IMG/VR virus record: IMGVR_UViG_2875697941_000003
Length of the DNA stretch: 54,981 bases
From: a virus
Taxonomy: Duplodnaviria > Heunggongvirae > Uroviricota > Caudoviricetes
Reading direction: 5' to 3' (one strand)
Below, piece by piece: positions 33,522 through 52,195 of this stretch. The translations under genes and the position numbers were made by a program. The notes under the pieces are model-generated. The model searched no databases. It saw only the letters and a list, made by a program, of their open reading frames with translations, and was not told where the DNA came from. Every line of letters starts with the position of its first letter. Position 1 is the first letter of the stretch.

Positions 33522-34107
33522 TTTTCCTCACATATGTCATATAGTAAAGGATTATATATACCGTTGTTTTGGACGCTCAAACAGCGAATCAGATCAAATA
33601 AAACGCACATTTGTTAACATTTACACAAAGTCTGCGTGGGATATTCTGAAAGAATATCCATAATGTGGAGAGAATCTATTGAAGTGCATGGTGCCGGGTG
33701 CCTCCCGGTGAACAAAATGTTCGTGATACCTGTCGGCGACAGAAAAGGTTAATGGTATCACCCCACCGCACAGGGGGATTCACCATGCAGGAGTTTTCTT
33801 AGCAAACTCACTGCGCGCCCGGCAACTCCCAACCACATAAAATGCGGAGTTTGTGGTATTTATGCATATAACTCGCAGGAATTATCTTAAAAAACTGATG
33901 TCGATCCGGATTAAAAAGAAGCAGGTCATCATCAGATGACTGGAAAAAAGGAAAAAAAATACTCATCATACAGTTTTGATTGCAGGGATGAGCCTGCTAT
34001 GCACAATATGCAGAATATAAGCAAGATAAAAATATGCAGGCATATTATTTCGGATTTTGTTATTAACACAACCTTTTTAATAATCATTTGGCATACAATA
34101 AACCAGT

Positions 34108-42119: not shown

Positions 42120-44123
42120 TTAACGAACCAGATGCAGGAAGTGCAGGTGTTTTTCGTACTGGTCCAGTATGTCATTAATCAGCTGTTCCTGATTCCAGCC
42201 CATTACATCATAATTTTGGCCGCCCTCTTTGAGATAGACTTCAGCGCGATAATATCGATGTTGTTCACTCTGCTGCTCATCATTATCCAGCGCAGCGAGC
42301 GCGAAGGTCGGTGAGTTATACCCGCGAAGCCTCACTTCATATATATAATTCAGCTCGTTGCCCAAATCGACTTCAAGGCGAATACGATCCTCGGCGGCGT
42401 CACTGATGTGGCTTATCGTTCCCTGCTTGTTAAGTTCCTCCTGAACCAGCGTCATGGCGGGTTGGATAATGTCGTCCATAAAACGTTTCACAAGAGAGCG
42501 CTTCGGCAAATACGCGATATTGCGTAACCTTCTCTGCCAGGGAATTGGGTTACGTGCAGCCGTAGGAGCAATAGTCGCCATGCTAAGGCTTTCACGCTTG
42601 GTCAAATCCCGACGCAGGGCTTTTAACAGTCCGTATATGGATATTAATAAGATAACTGAGAAGGGCAATGCACTCGCTATCGTTACGGTTTGCAACGCAC
42701 TCAGCCCCCCTGCGATCAGCAGGGCAATAGCAACAACGCCCATGAGCGATGCCCAGAAAATTCGCTGCCAGACGGGCGTGTTTGCCACCCCACCTGATGC
42801 CAGAGTATCCACAACCATTGCCCCCGAATCAGCAGACGTTACAAAGAAGACGATGACCATCGCCATTGCAATGAATGACAGCACGGAAGAGAACGGGAAA
42901 TGCTCCAGGAAATTAAACAGGGCAAGCGCAACATCCTGCTGAACGGTATTGGCGAGGTCAGTGGCGCCCTGGTTCATGATGAGATAGATGGCGCTGTTTC
43001 CAAACACCGTCATCCACATGAGCGTAAAGCCGGCGGGAACAAACAACACGCCAGTCACGAACTCACGAATTGTCCTGCCGCGGGAAACGCGTGCAATGAA
43101 CATACCTACAAACGGCGACCATGAAAGCCACCATCCCCAGTATAATAATGTCCAGCCCCCCAGCCAGTTGCTCGACTTGGGTTCATACGCGTAAAGGTTG
43201 AACGTTTTACTCACCAGTTCCGACAGATAACCACCCGTATTTTCCACAAATGACTTCAGCAGAAGCACAGTGGGACCCAGGCACAAGACCAGCGCCAGGA
43301 GCAACACCGCCAGGCCCAGATTAAGCTCAGACAGGATGCGTATTCCCTTGTCCAGGCCGGACACCACCGAAATCGTCGCTAACCCCGTGATGACCACGAT
43401 CAAAATGACCTGTACCGTTTCATTGATGGGCACGCCGAAAAGATGGTTCAAACCGGCATTCACCTGCAATACACCGTAACCCAGCGATGTTGCAACGCCA
43501 AAGACAGTGCCTATCACGGCGAAGATATCAACCGCGTGGCCTATAGGCCCGTAAATGCGATCGCCGATAATGGGATAGAGCGCAGAACGCAGCGTTAAAG
43601 GCAGACCGTGACGGTAACTGAAAAAGGCCAGAATCAGCGCCACGATGGCATAAATTGCCCATGCGTGCAGACCCCAGTGGAAGAACGTCAGGCGCATGGC
43701 TTCCTTCGCTGCCGCAACGGTCTCTGGAGTGCCGACAGGTGGCGAAAGATAATGCATCACAGGTTCGGCAACGCCAAAGAACATCAGGCCGATCCCCATC
43801 CCTGCCGAAAAAAGCATCGCGAACCAGGAGTGGTAGCTGAAATCAGGCTGCGCATGGTCTGGGCCCAGCTTTATATCACCGTAACGTGAGAGTCCAAGGA
43901 ACGTGACGCTCAGTAAAATCAGGGCCACAGCAAGTATGTAGAACCAGCTGGCATTCGTGAAGATTTGTTGCTGAAGTAGTTTAAAATTTTTGTCGGCGAC
44001 ATCCGGGAATACGGCGGCAAAGGCGACAAGAAGGAAAATTAGCAAAGCAGATGTAAAGAATACCGCTTTGTTAATCTGGCTTGTAGACTTCTTTGGGGTT
44101 GTATCATTTTCACTCATAATCAT
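42120..44123 (-). CDS. BCCT-family transporter, BetT-like (choline/betaine/carnitine), 667 aa
   Basis: Shares blocks with E. coli BetT (WSPFVG.F.ARVSRGRTIR.FV; ILDQYE.HL.F.HL) but is a paralog. Confidence 0.85.
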   Translation of the reverse strand: MIMSENDTTPKKSTSQINKAVFFTSALLIFLLVAFAAVFPDVADKNFKLLQQQIFTNASWFYILAVALILLSVTFLGLSRYGDIKLGPDHAQPDFSYHSWFAMLFSAGMGIGLMFFGVAEPVMHYLSPPVGTPETVAAAKEAMRLTFFHWGLHAWAIYAIVALILAFFSYRHGLPLTLRSALYPIIGDRIYGPIGHAVDIFAVIGTVFGVATSLGYGVLQVNAGLNHLFGVPINETVQVILIVVITGLATISVVSGLDKGIRILSELNLGLAVLLLALVLCLGPTVLLLKSFVENTGGYLSELVSKTFNLYAYEPKSSNWLGGWTLLYWGWWLSWSPFVGMFIARVSRGRTIREFVTGVLFVPAGFTLMWMTVFGNSAIYLIMNQGATDLANTVQQDVALALFNFLEHFPFSSVLSFIAMAMVIVFFVTSADSGAMVVDTLASGGVANTPVWQRIFWASLMGVVAIALLIAGGLSALQTVTIASALPFSVILLISIYGLLKALRRDLTKRESLSMATIAPTAARNPIPWQRRLRNIAYLPKRSLVKRFMDDIIQPAMTLVQEELNKQGTISHISDAAEDRIRLEVDLGNELNYIYEVRLRGYNSPTFALAALDNDEQQSEQHRYYRAEVYLKEGGQNYDVMGWNQEQLINDILDQYEKHLHFLHLVR

Positions 44124-44457
44124 TTATTCCATTAATTAAATCCGCACTGGATAGAAGGTACTACCTCTCACAGAGTAGCAAAGTTCAACTGGCTATGCGG
44201 GGTTAATCGGAATGCATGGTGGAATGAGTGCCGATACAAATCATCCTATATTCTAAGGAGTTTTAAGTTACTCAGCCTGCCAATTACTGGGGCATTTAAT
44301 TTGTATGATCTGTATCAAAGCTGGGATATAAGTTAAGTGAAGTATATTAGGCACGAATTACCAGCGTCTGCTCTTGGCACAAAGCGGACAACCACGCTAG
44401 CTCTACCCTGTGCCACAAAATGTCAATTTGCATCTGAACTAATGCACTTTAATCTCG

Positions 44458-44880
44458 TCACTTCAATAAATACCGAACATCCCCCTGATAAAACGACAAT
44501 ATGCGCTGCATAACTTCGCTCTTCCGGCACTCGCGACAGATTATGTTTAGGCGACTGTCGTAGCGACGTATTTCTCCGTCAGGTAATGACCAGATAAGGT
44601 CCGGATCAACCACAACCGGTTTCTTCAGCTTTGCCCTCGATAATTTTTTGCGGGCATTTTGCCAGTCTTTACGAGCCTGTTCAGACGGGAATAACCCGTA
44701 GCCAGAATTGTATACATCGCCACTGGCAACCAGCTCTCTGGCCAGAACGCTCATCAGATATCTTGTTGCCCCAGTTTTAGCTTCCAGTTGTCGTAACGTC
44801 TCGCGCCCACTCTGGCGTACGAGTTCAAGAACCTGCCCTTTAATTTTTTCCCGCTCTTCTTGTGTAAAAACTTTTGCCAC
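44458..44880 (-). CDS. Hypothetical early-region protein (140 aa)
   Basis: ORF directly downstream of the replication gene. Confidence 0.5.
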   Translation of the reverse strand: MAKVFTQEEREKIKGQVLELVRQSGRETLRQLEAKTGATRYLMSVLARELVASGDVYNSGYGLFPSEQARKDWQNARKKLSRAKLKKPVVVDPDLIWSLPDGEIRRYDSRLNIICRECRKSEVMQRILSFYQGDVRYLLK

Positions 44881-45997: not shown

Positions 45998-46062
45998 CTC
46001 TTTTGATACCGAATCTTTTTACTCACAAATTGCCGGAAGCGATCCGGTATGAATATTGCGAG

Positions 46063-46488
46063 TCAATGCACAGCCACAATATTTCCTGCAGGGCCACCAC
46101 GATTCATCTGGTTGAAACCAGCGATCGCCACTGCGACAAAATCATCAGCGTCTCTCACCAGTCGTTCCCGCGTCTCCACTAGTTCCCGAAAATAGGCTGA
46201 GCTATGACTGCGCATTCGGGCCACCAGCAGAGGTGGCATTGCTTTTTCGATAGCTGGTAACAACGCCTGAATTTTTTTAACCGCATCAGGGGTGTCTTTC
46301 TCCACCCAGCGGAAAATTTTCTGAGTATTGCGAGCCAGGGCTTCCGGATGGCTGTCGTCATACAGTTCCGGGAACGTCATTCCCAGCTCGAAATACGCTT
46401 TGGTAATTTTCGCAGCCGGTACTTTTTCGCCGTCCGGATGCGCCCAGGCATTCATCGCCATGCGGATGTGTTCATGCTTGATTTTCAT
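46063..46488 (-). CDS. YdaT-like early-region protein (141 aa) by position and size
   Basis: Second gene of the rightward early operon after the Cro-like gene, as ydaT in K-12 Rac. Confidence 0.5.
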   Translation of the reverse strand: MKIKHEHIRMAMNAWAHPDGEKVPAAKITKAYFELGMTFPELYDDSHPEALARNTQKIFRWVEKDTPDAVKKIQALLPAIEKAMPPLLVARMRSHSSAYFRELVETRERLVRDADDFVAVAIAGFNQMNRGGPAGNIVAVH

Positions 46489-46739
46489 GAATCAACTCCC
46501 ATCAGCTTTTTCGTAGTAGTTTTATTCCTGCCAATAGTTAAAATTGCATCGGCAGAAAATAATCCGTTTGATTCAAGAGCGATTTTTTCAGCGTAATTTG
46601 TTTCGCCGGTATATTCTGTGCGAGGCAATTTTCCGTTATCCATCCATTTATAGATTGCTCTTTGGCTGACACCACAAACGTCGGCCACAACAGCAACGCG
46701 AACAGTTTTGATTACATCTTCAAGTGTTTTCTGGTTCAT
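46485..46739 (-). CDS. Cro/YdaS-like HTH protein (start taken at ATG with SD GAGGGTG)
   Basis: HTH-like segment VVADVCGVSQRAIYKWM; divergent from the repressor gene. Confidence 0.6.
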   Translation of the reverse strand: MNQKTLEDVIKTVRVAVVADVCGVSQRAIYKWMDNGKLPRTEYTGETNYAEKIALESNGLFSADAILTIGRNKTTTKKLMGVDS

Positions 46740-46750
46740 ATCACCCTCAC

Positions 46751-46795
46751 AATGTGAACTTTGAGTACATGCTATAACAGAACTGACAGTACATT
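46751..46795. promoter_or_regulatory. Putative operator/promoter region between divergent repressor and Cro-like genes
   Basis: AGTACAT(T) motifs at 46764-46770 and 46788-46795 plus related AATGTGAACT, in a 79-bp divergent intergenic region. Confidence 0.4.
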
Positions 46796-46818
46796 CAAGA
46801 GCGAATATCATTGAACTT

Positions 46819-47238
46819 ATGGTTCATGAAGATAAAGCGCGTAAAGAGTTCGCCAGTAGGCTTGCGCTAGCCTGTGAAAACGCTGGTTATGAACAACATG
46901 GAAGGCAGGCAGAAATTGCCCGTCGAATGAAATTAACACCAAAAGCGGTTAGCAAATGGTTTAATGGCGAAACAATTCCTCGCCGGGAGAAATTAAGGGA
47001 ATTAGCAACACTAATAGGAACAACACCAACCTACCTTTTGGGAGAGGATACAGAAGAAAGTGGACAGGTACGTTTCTATCAGGAGTTAAATCCAAGACAA
47101 AAAATCATCATTGACCTTCTGGACGAGCTCCCTGACAGTGAGACAGATGAACTTTTAAAAACTCTTGAAGAGAAAAAACAGAAGTACAATGCAATTTACG
47201 AAGAGTTAGCACGAAAGAAAAAACAAAAAGCCTCTTAA
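46819..47238 (+). CDS. Prophage repressor-like HTH protein (RacR-like position), 139 aa
   Basis: XRE-type HTH with Lys-rich coiled C-terminus; divergent from Cro-like gene. Confidence 0.65.
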   Translation: MVHEDKARKEFASRLALACENAGYEQHGRQAEIARRMKLTPKAVSKWFNGETIPRREKLRELATLIGTTPTYLLGEDTEESGQVRFYQELNPRQKIIIDLLDELPDSETDELLKTLEEKKQKYNAIYEELARKKKQKAS

Positions 47239-47302
47239 ACCAGCATAAATCCGGTAGCGCCTTCCTCCGGGTTTGTGCTTCACTTTATCCCATCTCATTT
47301 TT

Positions 47303-47356
47303 TTACACATAAAATGTACTAAATGTACTTTACAACAATGAACACAAAGTACATTA
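47303..47356 (+). promoter_or_regulatory. Putative early-left promoter/operator (pL analogue)
   Basis: Tandem AAATGTACT AAATGTACT (47312-47329) and inverted AGTACATT (47349-47356) overlapping TTTACA / TACATT promoter-like boxes. Confidence 0.4.
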
Positions 47357-47524
47357 TATGCCTGCCACCCACCCCGCCCCACAGAATGCAGGGCAATACT
47401 TCGAGTTACCAGGCAGTGGTCAGGGGTTAAGTAGCCAGCCCGAGGCGTAAGAACATGACGGCGGGATTCAAATTTTGCAGTGCAGCAGTTAGTTCCGCCA
47501 CCCGGCGTTAAGGGGAGAGATAAG

Positions 47525-47659
47525 ATGGTGCATTACGAAGTAGTTCAGTATTTGATGGATTGTTGCGGTATCACTTACAACCAGGCTGTGCAGGCTTTAC
47601 GCAGCAACGACTGGGATCTCTGGCAGGCAGAAGTCGCTATACGTAGCAACAAGATGTGA
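47525..47659 (+). CDS. ydaG: Small protein YdaG-like (44 aa)
   Basis: ATG with SD AGGGGAGAG; size, order and orientation match K-12 Rac ydaG. Confidence 0.5.
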   Translation: MVHYEVVQYLMDCCGITYNQAVQALRSNDWDLWQAEVAIRSNKM

Positions 47660-47669
47660 GATTCGCAAA

Positions 47670-47825
47670 ATGCAAAAAATCGACCTCGGCAACAACGAAT
47701 CCCTGGTGTGCGGCGTGTTCCCCAACCAGGATGGAACGTTCACTGCCATGACGTATACCAAAAGCAAAACATTTAAAACCGAAACTGGTGCGCGCCGATG
47801 GTTGGAGAAGCACACAGTAAGCTAA
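47670..47825 (+). CDS. ydaF: Small protein YdaF-like (51 aa)
   Basis: Size, order and orientation match K-12 Rac ydaF. Confidence 0.45.
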   Translation: MQKIDLGNNESLVCGVFPNQDGTFTAMTYTKSKTFKTETGARRWLEKHTVS

Positions 47826-48310
47826 CGATTAAAACGTCTACTCCTGCTGTTCCAGAATAACTTCATAAAATGGGAGTATTTTTCGGTGACGAGATAATAA
47901 GAACAGTTTGCGCTATCACTCTGATGTTGAATGATGCCCTTCCGTTCTAATTTTTTCATAACCGGGTTACGGCAAGGAGAAGTGATAATAAGATTTCCTG
48001 TTTTAAGGAAATCTTTAAATACAGCGATTTCTTTCTCAGATAAACGAAGCAATACTCGTTGCTCTGGTAGTAATGAATAATGCTTTTGAATATGTGCTCG
48101 CAATCTTGAGAAGGAAATGGCGACCACGAAAGAAAAGGCAAAAACGATAATCTGAAAGAGCCAAGGTATTTCAGTATAAGCATTGAATGCGACAGTAAAC
48201 TCTTTCGGTATCAGCCAGAGAGTGAGACCAAAAATGATAATCGTATACATAAGTCTTTCGAGTGGCTCGTTAGCAAAAAGTTTCAACAATGGAGTAAATA
48301 CATCCAACAT
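47822..48310 (-). CDS. sieB: Superinfection exclusion protein B (SieB), 162 aa
   Basis: Membrane protein MLDVFTPLLKLFANEPLERLMYTIIIFGLTLWLIP...; position and size as Rac sieB. Confidence 0.75.
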   Translation of the reverse strand: MLDVFTPLLKLFANEPLERLMYTIIIFGLTLWLIPKEFTVAFNAYTEIPWLFQIIVFAFSFVVAISFSRLRAHIQKHYSLLPEQRVLLRLSEKEIAVFKDFLKTGNLIITSPCRNPVMKKLERKGIIQHQSDSANCSYYLVTEKYSHFMKLFWNSRSRRFNR

Positions 48311-48751
48311 ATCAATAACTCTCAACTGTAAGGGTATTGAAATGTTAACACAAACTCTCGCTGTAGGGGTATAGCCGAGACCACCGAAGCCCGGAGGTGG
48401 TGAAATAAAACCGGGCACAACACGAAGGCGCATTTCCGATATCCATAAAGAGTCGGTCTTGTCTGTTAAATTTAAATGGAGGGAGTGCGCCTCCGGTTGT
48501 AAATAACGACATTGCTGTGTGTAGTCCTGGCGGCATCAGTTTTTTTCTTGAAGTTCGGCTGATGTCCGCCCTTTTTAAAGTGAATTTTGTGATGCGGTGA
48601 ATGCGGCTAAGCGCACGTGGCACAGTTAAAAGTCATGTTAGTCCTTATTGGTTTGGGTGGGAAAGCCGACTGTAATTGTTAACTGGTTGCAGTCACCTGG
48701 AGGCACCAGACACCGCATCAACAAAGTTCATTTGTAAAAATGGAGATAATT

Positions 48752-48973
48752 ATGATTGCACATCACTTCGGAACTGATGAAATACCACGTCAGTGTGTGA
48801 CTCCTGGCGATTATGTTCTTCATGAAGGCCGGACATATATTGCCTCGGCAAACAATATTAAAAAGCGAAAACTATATATTCGTAACCTGACCACAAAAAC
48901 ATTCATTACTGACCGCATGATTAAAGTCTTCCTCGGTCGTGATGGTTTACCTGTAAAGGCGGAGTCATGGTGA
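48752..48973 (+). CDS. kilR: Killing protein KilR (FtsZ inhibitor), 73 aa
   Basis: Sequence [35 protein letters not shown]... recognised as Rac KilR. Confidence 0.75.
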
Positions 48974-49143
48974 TGACTAAGAAAATAAAATGTGCTTACC
49001 ACCTTTGCAAAAAAGACGTTGAAGAAAGCAAAGCTATTGAAAGAATGCTTCACTTCATGCACGGGATTTTATCAAAAGACGAACCGAGAAAATATTGCAG
49101 TGAAGCTTGTGCCGAAAAAGACCAGATGGCACATGAACTTTAA
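48973..49143 (+). CDS. ydaE: Small Cys-containing protein YdaE (56 aa)
   Basis: Start overlaps kilR stop (TGATG); KIKCAYHLCKK...KYCSEAC; below the ORF-track cutoff. Confidence 0.6.
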   Translation: MTKKIKCAYHLCKKDVEESKAIERMLHFMHGILSKDEPRKYCSEACAEKDQMAHEL

Positions 49144-49217
49144 TTAATTGACTATTCGAAACTGAATTTATGCCAGAAATGGCAGGTATTCGCTCAACCT
49201 TAATTAAGGAGAAAAAC

Positions 49218-49493
49218 ATGATTACCAATTATGAAGCCACTGTTGTAACTACCGATGACATTGTTCACGAGGTGAATCTGGAAGGAAAGCGCATTGGCTA
49301 CGTAATTAAAACAGAAAATAAAGAAACCCCATTCACTGTGGTTGATATCGATGGTCCATCAGGCAACGTAAAAACACTTGATGAAGGTGTCAAAAAAATG
49401 TGCCTGGTGCATATCGGAAAGAATCTGCCCGCAGAAAAAAAAGCCGAATTTCTGGCAACTCTAATTGCAATGAAATTAAAAGGTGAAATCTGA
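49218..49493 (+). CDS. racC: RacC protein (91 aa)
   Basis: MITNYEATVVTTDD...; directly upstream of recE. Confidence 0.7.
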   Translation: MITNYEATVVTTDDIVHEVNLEGKRIGYVIKTENKETPFTVVDIDGPSGNVKTLDEGVKKMCLVHIGKNLPAEKKAEFLATLIAMKLKGEI

Positions 49494-49594
49494 AAGAAAT
49501 AGCCTGCGTATGGCGCAGGCTATGAACAGTGTGTATCCGGCAAGATCATTCACTGAACAAAACGAATTTTAATCTGAGTTGAGGTTAAAAAACA

Positions 49595-52195
49595 ATGAGC
49601 ACAAAACCACTCTTCCTGTTACGGAAAGCGAAAAAATCATCCGGTGAACCTGACGTCGTCCTGTGGGCAAGCAACGATTTTGAATCGACCTGTGCCACTC
49701 TGGACTACCTGATCGTTAAGTCAGGTAAAAAACTGAGCAGCTATTTTAAAGCTGTTGCCACGAATTTTCCTGTCGTTAATGACCTGCCCGCTGAAGGTGA
49801 GATCGATTTTACCTGGAGTGAACGCTATCAACTCAGCAAAGACTCCATGACATGGGAACTAAAACCGGGAGCAGCACCAGACAACGCTCACTATCAAGGC
49901 AATACCAACGTCAACGGCGAAGACATGACTGAGATTGAGGAGAATATGCTACTCCCAATTTCTGGCCAGGAACTGCCCATTCGTTGGCTTGCTCAACACG
50001 GCAGCGAAAAACCGGTAACGCACGTTTCACGCGACGGACTCCAGGCATTACACATTGCTCGAGCTGAAGAACTACCGGCTGTTACTGCCCTGGCTGTTTC
50101 CCACAAAACCAGCCTGCTCGACCCGCTGGAAATTCGCGAACTCCACAAACTGGTTCGTGACACTGACAAAGTTTTCCCTAATCCTGGTAATTCAAACCTG
50201 GGACTGATAACTGCTTTTTTCGAAGCATACCTGAACGCTGACTACACCGATCGAGGACTGCTGACAAAAGAGTGGATGAAGGGTAATCGTGTTTCACACA
50301 TCACTTGCACGGCTTCCGGTGCTAATGCTGGCGGCGGAAACCTCACCGATCGCGGCGAAGGTTTCGTACACGATCTGACGTCACTGGCGCGCGACGTAGC
50401 CACTGGCGTACTGGCCCGTTCAATGGATCTGGACATCTATAACCTTCATCCGGCACACGCTAAACGCATTGAGGAAATTATCGCTGAAAATAAACCGCCC
50501 TTTTCTGTTTTCCGCGACAAATTCATCACCATGCCTGGCGGGCTGGATTATTCCCGCGCCATCGTGGTTGCGTCCGTAAAAGAAGCACCAATTGGGATCG
50601 AGGTCATCCCCGCGCACGTCACTGAATATCTGAACAAAGTACTGACTGAAACCGATCATGCCAACCCTGATCCGGAAATCGTGGATATTGCCTGCGGTCG
50701 CTCCTCTGCCCCGATGCCGCAGCGAGTAACAGAAGAAGGAAAACAGGATGATGAAGAAAAACCGCAACCATCTGGAACAACGGCAGTTGAACAGGGAGAG
50801 GCTGAAACAATGGAACCGGACGCAACTGAACATCATCAGGACACGCAGCCGCTGGATGCTCAGTCACAGGTAAATTCTGTTGATGCGAAATATCAGGAAC
50901 TGCGGGCAGAACTCCATGAAGCCCGGAAAAACATTCCATCAAAAAATCCTGTCGATGCCGATAAATTGCTTGCTGCATCACGTGGTGAATTTGTTGACGG
51001 AATTAGCGACCCGAACGATCCGAAATGGGTAAAGGGGATCCAGACTCGCGATTGTGTGTACCAGAACCAGCCAGAAACGGAAAAAACCAGCCCAGATATG
51101 AATCAACCTGAGCCAGTAGTGCAACAGGAACCGGAAATAGCCTGCAATGCCTGCGGCCAGACTGGCGGGGATAACTGCCCTGACTGTGGTGCGGTGATGG
51201 GCGACGCAACATACCAGGAAACATTCGATGAAGAGAGTCAGGTTGAAGCTAAGGAAAATGATCCGGAGGAAATGGAAGGCGCTGAACATCCGCACAATGA
51301 GAATGCTGGCAGCGATCCGCATCGCGATTGCAGTGATGAAACTGGCGAAGTCGCAGATCCCGTAATCGTAGAAGACATAGAGCCAGGTATTTATTACGGA
51401 ATTTCGAATGAGAATTACCACGCGGGTCCCGGTATCAGTAAGTCTCAGCTCGATGACATTGCTGATACTCCGGCACTATATTTGTGGCGTAAAAATGCCC
51501 CCGTGGACACCACAAAGACAAAAACGCTCGATTTAGGAACTGCTTTCCACTGCCGGGTACTTGAACCGGAAGAATTCAGTAACCGCTTTATCGTAGCACC
51601 TGAATTTAACCGCCGTACAAACGCCGGAAAAGAAGAAGAGAAAGCGTTTCTGATGGAATGCGCAAGCACAGGAAAAACGGTTATCACTGCGGAAGAAGGC
51701 CGGAAAATTGAACTCATGTATCAAAGCGTTATGGCTTTGCCGCTGGGGCAATGGCTTGTTGAAAGCGCCGGACACGCTGAATCATCAATTTACTGGGAAG
51801 ATCCTGAAACAGGAATTTTGTGTCGGTGCCGTCCGGACAAAATTATCCCTGAATTTCACTGGATCATGGACGTGAAAACTACGGCGGATATTCAACGATT
51901 CAAAACCGCTTATTACGACTACCGCTATCACGTTCAGGATGCGTTCTACAGTGACGGTTATGAAGCACAGTTTGGAGTGCAGCCAACTTTCGTTTTTCTG
52001 GTTGCCAGCACAACTATTGAATGCGGACGTTATCCGGTTGAAATTTTCATGATGGGCGAAGAAGCAAAACTGGCAGGTCAACAGGAATATCACCGCAATC
52101 TGCGAACCCTGTCTGACTGCCTGAATACCGATGAATGGCCAGCTATTAAGACATTATCACTGCCCCGCTGGGCTAAGGAATATGCAAATGACTAA
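49595..52195 (+). CDS. recE: Exodeoxyribonuclease VIII (RecE), 866 aa
   Basis: Full-length match to K-12 RecE as recalled ([24 protein letters not shown]...RWAKEYAND). Confidence 0.95.

Follow-up and report, generated by a model that had tools for sequence, protein, structure and literature searches.

The closest described counterparts of the immunity region reported here are those of phage HK022, of the Rac prophage of E. coli K-12 and of CP-933P in E. coli O157:H7, with lambda as a further point of comparison. In the GenBank annotation of HK022 (X16093), from which we extracted operators and promoters together with that of HK75 (HM173637), oR1 and oR3 both read TGAACTTATGGTTCA, oR2 reads GGAACTGATAGTACA, oR3 covers the ATG of cI, and the pL -35 hexamer TTTACA has an oL site on either side. 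The citing text of PMC8053113, after Carlson and Little 1993, attributes to HK022 CI both cooperative binding at adjacent operators and OL-OR looping. In K-12 Rac, three TAGGC-N3-GCCTA sites are the footprinted RacR operators O1–O3, with O3 over the racR ATG (PMC9638921). In K-12 the Rac repressor is essential and keeps both arms actively repressed (PMC5700373; bioRxiv 10.64898/2026.09.06.749655), and its silencing, titration or depletion derepresses ydaG, ydaF, kilR, ydaE, racC, recET, ralR, xisR and intR (bioRxiv 10.64898/2026.09.06.749655; PMC11014345). The Rac recombination functions undergo zygotic induction, as PMC5917428 states in citing Low 1973. CP-933P encodes PaaR2, a short CI-like repressor lacking a peptidase domain (PMC8630535, PMC9986795), and both paaR2 and lambda cI are leaderless genes (PMC8630535).

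The region studied lies in a window of 54,981 nucleotides (the whole stretch of DNA that was analysed) and matches the chromosome of E. coli MB49 at 100% identity, where it forms part of a Rac-type prophage remnant adjoining ttcA. The RefSeq gene order of the identical MB49 locus is intR, xisR, rcbA, ralR, recT, recE, racC, ydaE, kilR, sieB, ydaF, a small 'phage protein' (ydaG), the HTH repressor, a divergent HTH gene, ydaT, a gene for a 357-aa hypothetical protein and a DUF977 gene, after which the prophage ends and chromosomal genes follow; replication, lysis and structural genes are absent. Both the ttcA site and the gene series intR-xisR-ralR-recT-recE-racC-ydaE-kilR-sieB-ydaF that characterize Rac-type prophages are thus present. 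The arrangement is a common one: among 5426 complete E. coli genomes, 1028 carry a 661-bp module with an identity of 95% or more and 1047 carry it at 80% coverage or more, including EDL933 (O157:H7) in its Rac-like prophage. The regulatory genes and the YdaT box are as follows.

46819-47238, plus strand: immunity repressor, 139 aa, Pfam HTH_3
46485-46739, minus strand: Cro-like regulator, 84 aa, 59% identical to HK022 Cro (E 7e-33)
46063-46488, minus strand: ydaT gene (CII-equivalent), Pfam YdaT_toxin, 33% identical to K-12 YdaT
46478-46495: YdaT box TTGATTTTCATGAATCAA (minus/coding strand TTGATTCATGAAAATCAA), with the ydaT ATG within its spacer

An identical protein (100%), named 'CI repressor', is encoded by the isolated phage Tritos, and three vB_EcoS phages, among them vB_EcoS-673R7, have a CI that is 99.3% identical. 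Over its N-terminal ~100 residues the repressor shares 47.5% identity with HK022 CI (CI residues 4–102) and 60–71% with CI repressors of the S24 type from phages of Klebsiella, Citrobacter, Raoultella and Salmonella, and in an alignment the segment TPKA(V/I)SKWFNGE, which includes the recognition helix, is invariant across all of these proteins. The relationship ends with the DNA-binding domain: alignment to HK022-type CI stops before the S24 domain, and a Pfam search of the repressor returns no match to Peptidase_S24. The C-terminus consists instead of ~50 residues predicted to form a disordered linker and, as the AlphaFold model (pLDDT 83) shows, two helices, the two-helix domain being 37 aa in length. 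A PDB sequence search with the repressor gave only distant matches, to the N-terminal domains of P22 C2 and the 434 repressor; neither an HK022-type repressor nor the C-terminal domain was represented among the structures. Orthology to RacR was considered and rejected, as only 12 of 33 residues align with the K-12 protein. The divergent gene, which the original prediction had called ydaS, is a homologue of HK022 cro and has no significant similarity to K-12 YdaS. The ydaT assignment agrees with both the protein family and the presence of a YdaT box over the start codon. We note that this box is the sole zero-mismatch match to TTGATT-N6-AATCAA in the window, and that it matches the footprinted sites of CP-933P YdaT (PMC9986795) and K-12 YdaT (PMC11879457).

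AGTACAT had been proposed from the sequence as a motif shared by the two sides of the repressor gene, and the copies near that gene are these.

46764-46770, plus strand: AGTACAT, 5' of the repressor gene
46788-46794, plus strand: AGTACAT, 5' of the repressor gene
47314-47320, minus strand: AGTACAT, 3' of the repressor gene
47323-47329, minus strand: AGTACAT, 3' of the repressor gene
47348-47354, plus strand: AGTACAT, 3' of the repressor gene

Both copies expected in the divergent intergenic region (46740-46818, between the cro-like ATG at 46739 and the repressor ATG at 46819) are therefore present, and a repeat search also recovered the tandem pair and inverted copy that had been described 3' of the repressor gene, namely AAATGTACT at 47312-47320 and 47321-47329 and AAAGTACATT at 47346-47355. 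The same search returned a 16-nt direct-repeat family, GAACnnnnAGTACAT, which has three copies and is longer than AGTACAT. Counted on both strands, AGTACAT occurs 8 times across the 55-kb window, which is without significance (4.6 expected, with 8 or more in 10 of 100 shuffles); it is the clustering near the repressor gene, rather than the total number, that is informative. Because the bare count is not significant window-wide, we tested a palindromic pattern instead. GWAC-N5-GTWC has six exact matches in the window, where 1.78 are expected, and five of the six fall inside 46756-47352, for which simple arithmetic scaled from the window expectation gives ~0.02 per 600-bp stretch. The longer pattern TGWAC-N5-GTWCA has three exact and two one-mismatch sites near the repressor gene. 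The repeats that drew attention to this region are genuine, but on the evidence of these sequence patterns the operator unit is a 15-bp pseudo-palindrome, TG(A/T)AC-N5-GT(A/T)CA, of which AGTACAT is only half, and not the 7-mer or the tandem 9-mer. The five candidate operators are as follows.

46755-46769: OR1-equivalent operator TGAACTTTGAGTACA, an exact TGWAC-N5-GTWCA match, overlapping the start region of the rightward (cro-like) promoter
46779-46793: OR2-equivalent operator AGAACTGACAGTACA, one mismatch to the 15-mer, in the pR spacer and abutting the pR -35
46812-46826: OR3-equivalent operator TGAACTTATGGTTCA, an exact 15-mer match with the same sequence as HK022 oR3/oR1, spanning the repressor start codon
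47315-47329: OL2-equivalent operator TGTACTAAATGTACT, one mismatch, abutting the pL -35; HK022 has TGTACTATTGGTACT in the same place relative to TTTACA
47339-47353: OL1-equivalent operator TGAACACAAAGTACA, exact, in the pL spacer and overlapping the -10; HK022 has TGAACTTTAAGTACA

The spacings are 24 and 33 bp 5' of the repressor gene and 24 bp 3' of it. The GWAC of OR1 begins at -63 from the repressor ATG, the same offset as HK022 oR1; OR2 follows at 24 bp and offset -39, the same as HK022 oR2, and contains the predicted PRM -35; OR3 lies 33 bp beyond OR2 at offset -6. The two AGTACAT-marked sites upstream of the repressor gene that were originally seen are real, but the third, over the repressor ATG, had been overlooked. 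The promoter-like boxes said to overlap the motifs are also found, and with the addition of a promoter for the divergent genes the candidate promoters are these.

46771-46798, minus strand: pR-like promoter for the cro-like and ydaT genes, -35 TTGAAT (46798-46793), 16-nt spacer, TGn-extended -10 TATAGC (46776-46771)
46783-46811, plus strand: PRM-like promoter CTGACA-17-TATCAT, from a consensus scan (10/12), the best promoter-like match in the region
47329-47357, plus strand: pL-like promoter TTTACA-17-CATTAT, from a consensus scan, with hexamers placed as in annotated HK022 pL (TTTACA / CATCAT)

The position of the putative pR is deduced from its alignment with the annotated HK022 pR -35 and -10 together with our reading of the sequence; the consensus scan missed it because its -10 is without the final T. 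PRM is predicted to start at ~46818-46819, and its -35, inside OR2, is centred ~33 bp upstream of that start, so placed that the repressor bound at OR2 could act in either direction, activating or repressing its own promoter. The first start codon of the repressor ORF is at 46819. Since the best promoter match ends 7 nt 5' of the ATG and the ATG is preceded by no Shine-Dalgarno sequence, the repressor mRNA is predicted to be leaderless, for which paaR2 and lambda cI supply the analogy. At the putative pL, TTTACA occupies 47329-47334 and is bracketed by the OL pair, 24 bp apart.

Comparison with HK022 reveals extensive similarity in the operators and promoters. The operator consensus TG(A/T)AC-N5-GT(A/T)CA is common to both, the oR3 sequences are identical, the offsets of -63, -39 and -6 from the repressor ATG are shared with both HK022 and HK75 and recur in 12 further loci, the 24-bp OL pair brackets a TTTACA -35 in each, and the pR hexamers occupy equal positions; the pL hexamers are TTTACA / CATCAT in HK022 and TTTACA / CATTAT in the window. 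The cognate proteins correspond as well, through the homologous repressor DNA-binding domain (47.5%) and Cro (59%). By sequence, number, spacing, promoter interleaving and cognate DNA-binding domains, the window operators thus belong to the HK022 operator family. The module as a whole, as judged from its gene and site content, is not that of HK022. HK022 CI has an S24 domain for autocleavage and oligomerisation, the autocleavage being RecA-stimulated, whereas the window repressor has the two-helix C-terminus in its place. HK022 has O_FR downstream of cro, while no such site, allowing one mismatch, occurs at 46000-46755 of the window; the oL3 half-site is lost; nun and putL/putR of HK022 are absent, with the leader of the window not being alignable to putL and ydaG and ydaF lying downstream; and the position of cII is taken by ydaT.

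In these non-HK022 respects the whole module resembles the PaaR2-YdaS-YdaT switch of CP-933P and K-12 Rac. As in CP-933P, a short CI-like repressor without a peptidase domain is encoded opposite a divergent Cro-like gene followed by ydaT, the repressor gene is flanked on either side by operators that control PR/PRM and PL, its mRNA is leaderless (as predicted for the window), and a YdaT box TTGATT-N6-AATCAA, matched exactly in the window, sits at the cro-ydaT junction. CP-933P differs in having GTTTAGTAA-type operator repeats bound by PaaR2 and YdaS, with four 18-bp repeats in OR, and a paaA2-parE2 toxin-antitoxin pair 3' of the repressor gene that is absent from the window; PaaR2 was compared with the window repressor by its published description. 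K-12 Rac belongs to the same prophage family, with the same ttcA integration site, leftward genes and leader, and it has the same layout of three plus two operators built from its own motif, TAGGC-N3-GCCTA, with the third OR-side operator over the repressor ATG, two operators flanking the pL -35, and a YdaT box over the ydaT ATG. Its repressor and Cro-like proteins are nonetheless unrelated to those of the window, and its operator motif is different (PMC5700373, PMC9638921, PMC11879457). Lambda shares the divergent PR/PRM arrangement, adjacent operators ~24 bp apart centre to centre, a leaderless cI mRNA and an OL/pL region beyond the far side of the repressor gene, but its operator sequence is unrelated, its OR2-OR3 distance is 23 bp as opposed to 33 bp in the window, and the window has two clear OL sites where lambda has three, and neither an S24 domain nor an N/nut system.

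We compared the locus with others encoding repressors 40–100% identical to that of the window, from phages of E. coli, Salmonella, Raoultella, Klebsiella and Citrobacter and from metagenomes, the set of 15 loci also including HK022, HK75, Tritos and EDL933. As a contig scan with the repressor gave only one identical Shigella locus, the diversity in this set was drawn from protein-cluster look-ups and phage records. Sites at about -63 and -6 from the repressor ATG are common to the whole set of 15, and in 14 of the 15 a further one stands at -39; phage SI8, the most distant at 40% identity, has just two, at -62 and -6. In loci with downstream sequence, a pair of sites 24 bp apart is found 488 to 2765 bp 3', the distance varying with inserted genes, which in Salmonella encode a HigB-type toxin-antitoxin pair and in Raoultella and Klebsiella an AAA ATPase of 480 aa. 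Conservation is highest in the half-site columns (1.90 bits), lower in the N5 spacers (1.43 bits) and lowest in the other intergenic columns (1.07 bits). At OL2, GTAC-N5-GTAC is kept and N5 is variable, and at OL1 the half-sites are kept and the spacer is variable. EDL933 and L004 carry TGTACTTAAAGTACT at the position of the tandem AAATGTACT, retaining only GTAC-N5-GTAC, and Tritos also differs in the N5 segment of OL2 while keeping GTAC-N5-GTAC. The expectation that the motif would recur in relatives is thus borne out for the 15-bp operators, which are found in the 14 other loci, but not for the tandem AAATGTACT, which is not conserved. The K-12 Rac locus, with its unrelated RacR, served as a negative control and has none of the HK022-type sites.

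These comparisons bear directly on what the repeats are. Chance production in AT-rich intergenic DNA, an explanation in keeping with the bare 7-mer (8 copies for 4.6 expected, a number that 10 of 100 shuffles reach), deserves practically no credence: five of the six exact GWAC-N5-GTWC matches lie within 600 bp where ~0.02 would be expected, the spacings of 24, 33 and 24 bp are identical, and the sites are kept across genera while the sequence between them diverges, so that a chance origin is already refuted by the comparative data. The tandem 9-mer and the three-copy 16-nt family do emerge from a repeat search, and a direct repeat (AAATGTACT in tandem or GAACnnnnAGTACAT) could be the unit, bound head-to-tail by an excisionase-like factor, YdaT or a host factor. 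We find this very improbable in view of the N5 changes in EDL933, L004 and Tritos, which leave GTAC-N5-GTAC in place, of the true palindromes GAAC-N5-GTTC in relatives, and of the different box that YdaT has for itself at 46478-46495 (PMC9986795; PMC11879457). It is because of this box that YdaT was rejected as the binder of the AGTACAT sites.

A more serious concern is that the operators are homologous to those of HK022 but vestigial, with the repressor no longer made or the promoters dead in a remnant that is cut off after the DUF977 gene and has no replication, lysis or structural genes. We consider this unlikely, as the repressor, cro-like and ydaT ORFs are intact, the repressor is indistinguishable from that of an isolated phage (Tritos, 100% identity), the 661-bp module is maintained at 95% identity or better in 1028 of 5426 E. 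coli genomes, and the analogous K-12 repressor is essential and represses both arms (PMC5700373; bioRxiv 10.64898/2026.09.06.749655).

We therefore favour, at a probability of roughly 85%, the reading that the motif marks the operators of an HK022-type lambdoid immunity switch in a Rac-like prophage remnant at ttcA. The original prediction of an OR-like switch in the divergent region and of an OL/pL region 3' of the repressor gene is upheld by the HK022 homology and by conservation in the 14 related loci. In such a switch, dimers of the 139-aa repressor would bind the 15-bp TG(A/T)AC-N5-GT(A/T)CA sites through a helix-turn-helix like that of HK022 CI. Occupancy of OR1 and OR2, which cover the pR -10/start region and its spacer and -35, would silence the cro-like gene and ydaT, and from OR3, which covers the start codon, the repressor could regulate its own gene negatively. 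On the other side, OL2 and OL1 bracket the pL -35 and -10, and their occupancy would silence the leader, ydaG and ydaF, the shut-off probably extending to kilR-ydaE-racC-recET and beyond. The HK022-Cro-like protein would be expected to compete for the same sites, and YdaT would act elsewhere, at the YdaT box that spans the start codon of ydaT. Binding of the repressor to these sites, its cooperativity, OR-OL looping, the leaderless PRM transcript and the extent of the pL transcript are all proposed by analogy with the described systems. Cooperativity and looping may not be simply transferable, since the repressor is without the S24 domain that provides dimerisation and cooperativity in lambda and HK022 CI, and the switch could be partly vestigial, the element being a truncated prophage remnant. 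The leader and the genes downstream of pL are the same in the window as in K-12 Rac. Between pL and kilR, however, lie a DicF-like sRNA and sieB, which is encoded on the other strand, so that one transcript from pL through to int can be put forward only tentatively.

Judged by its sequence the feature is an ordinary lambdoid genetic switch of the long-known HK022 type, and our literature searches found no paper on this particular variant. It points to the protein and sites that would govern early gene expression in a Rac variant that is very common. Work on K-12 RacR is not transferable at the sequence level to these strains, because their repressor, Cro-like protein and operators are HK022-type. 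The repressor itself joins an HK022-type DNA-binding domain to a C-terminal domain predicted not to be SOS-cleavable, a combination from which one would expect cross-immunity between this prophage and HK022-like phages, and prophage maintenance that does not depend on SOS.

The sequence that follows pL can be considered separately.

47363-47524, plus strand: conserved leader at the head of the leftward operon, extending as far as the start codon of ydaG

From ~47363, just after the pL -10, K-12 Rac and several phages whose repressors are different have nearly the same sequence as the window. RNAalifold, applied to 21 and to 72 unique leader sequences, predicts a hairpin at the 5' end, whose 15-nt loop, CAAUACYUCGAGUUA, is conserved and in which several pairs change from GC to AU, and towards the 3' end a long stem, GAAC...GUUC, whose apex varies; we regard the structure as suggestive because the covarying pairs are few and many come from one clade. 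The single-sequence fold has a z-score of +0.85 and so carries no thermodynamic signal. An Rfam scan of 46000-49700 gave no family match in the leader, which says nothing about any likeness to put, since a control scan of HK022 and HK75 with Rfam returned no put family either. A literature search on putL and prophages yielded nothing on Rac. We offer as a speculation, and one that we think will probably prove wrong in this full form, that the leader (~160 nt, common to at least 12 cassettes and at the position of HK022 putL) is a put-like cis antitermination or processing element by which pL transcription in Rac/Qin-type phages, which lack N, gets as far as recET, xis and int, and that through the domain swap in the repressor roughly a fifth of E. 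coli genomes have SOS-blind immunity of the HK022 type, perhaps including cross-immunity to HK022-like phages.

A scan of viral contigs with a 19-mer from the leader found 120 loci, in which at least 12 different operator/-35 cassettes precede the common leader, each having a palindrome of its own in two copies that flank the -35. The classes include the HK022 type, the K-12 RacR type and a GTTTAG type resembling the CP-933P operators. This exchange of cassettes in front of a common leader independently locates pL and marks the flanking palindromes as immunity-specific operators. The locus thereby presents a clean natural case of immunity-cassette exchange at a fixed joint, the different immunity types exchanging sequence exactly up to the end of the pL -10.

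The leftward promoter-like element pL (47329-47357, + strand), with its two HK022-type operators (the OL pair) flanking the -35, is followed directly by a conserved segment:

Window 47363-47524: conserved leader, ~160 nt, immediately 3' of pL.

This leader is near-identical between K-12 Rac and many phages whose repressors are unrelated. Among the viral-contig loci sharing it (L027-L146), where 70 nt upstream were inspected, the same leader is preceded by at least 12 distinct pL cassettes. In every one of these the -35 hexamer has a cassette-specific palindrome on either side, giving two copies, and the mosaic joint lies directly after the -10. The leader is predicted to form a hairpin whose 15-nt loop is conserved and a long stem that varies at its apex, both with partial covariation support, and an Rfam scan of the segment matched no family. 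In HK022, putL sits at the position taken here by the leader.

A comparable arrangement is seen in K-12 Rac (L002), with two extra copies of the RacR operator motif downstream of racR:

L002 9631-9643 and 9656-9668 (MG1655 about 1419630-1419667): TAGGC-N3-GCCTA sites.

These flank a TTGACA -35 and form an OL-like pair. The text searched in PMC9638921 describes O1-O3, the footprinted RacR operators, in the racR-ydaS intergenic region and one half-site inside racR, and no other sites.

The repressor itself (gene 46819-47238) joins an HK022-CI-like DNA-binding domain to a predicted short two-helix C-terminal domain in place of an S24 peptidase. Since closely related repressors that share this N-terminal domain (P0021 and P0034) do have S24, this composition suggests a domain swap and control that would be SOS-independent. 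Located 3' of the gene is a putative weak terminator (47249-47280), in which AUCCGG, a 12-nt loop and CCGGGU are followed by UUUGUGCUU; a terminator scan called none at this position. Such a terminator would insulate OL/pL from transcripts initiated at the repressor promoter PRM.

We note that in some relatives inserted cargo genes separate the OL pair from the repressor gene (L007 3553-4220, L008 3588-4255 and L010 3808-5250). The cargo is a HigB-toxin/HTH-antitoxin pair in the Salmonella relatives and a 480-aa AAA_15/AAA_21 ATPase in those from Raoultella and Klebsiella, and its position is analogous to that of paaA2-parE2 in CP-933P and rexAB in lambda.

Three further features lie to either side of the switch:

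46478-46495: YdaT box, TTGATT-N6-AATCAA, exact match, whose spacer contains the ydaT ATG.
48516-48571, + strand: DicF-like RNA upstream of kilR (Rfam score 39 bits, under the gathering threshold of 48).
48573-48759, + strand: STnc100-like match upstream of kilR (Rfam 28 bits).

The box, the sole zero-mismatch occurrence of its pattern in the whole window, matches the sites at which YdaT has been footprinted in CP-933P (PMC9986795) and in K-12 Rac (PMC11879457). The K-12 annotation places the sRNA kilS in the area of the two RNA matches.

The prophage stops abruptly past a DUF977 gene (44123-44458), and a BCCT transporter gene comes next. Replication-helicase, lysis and structural genes are all absent from its gene content, and it is therefore a short remnant. 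The sixth exact match in the window to GWAC-N5-GTWC, the HK022-type operator core, is chromosomal and far from the prophage (33710-33722, GAACAAAATGTTC); this lone match is consistent with chance expectation.
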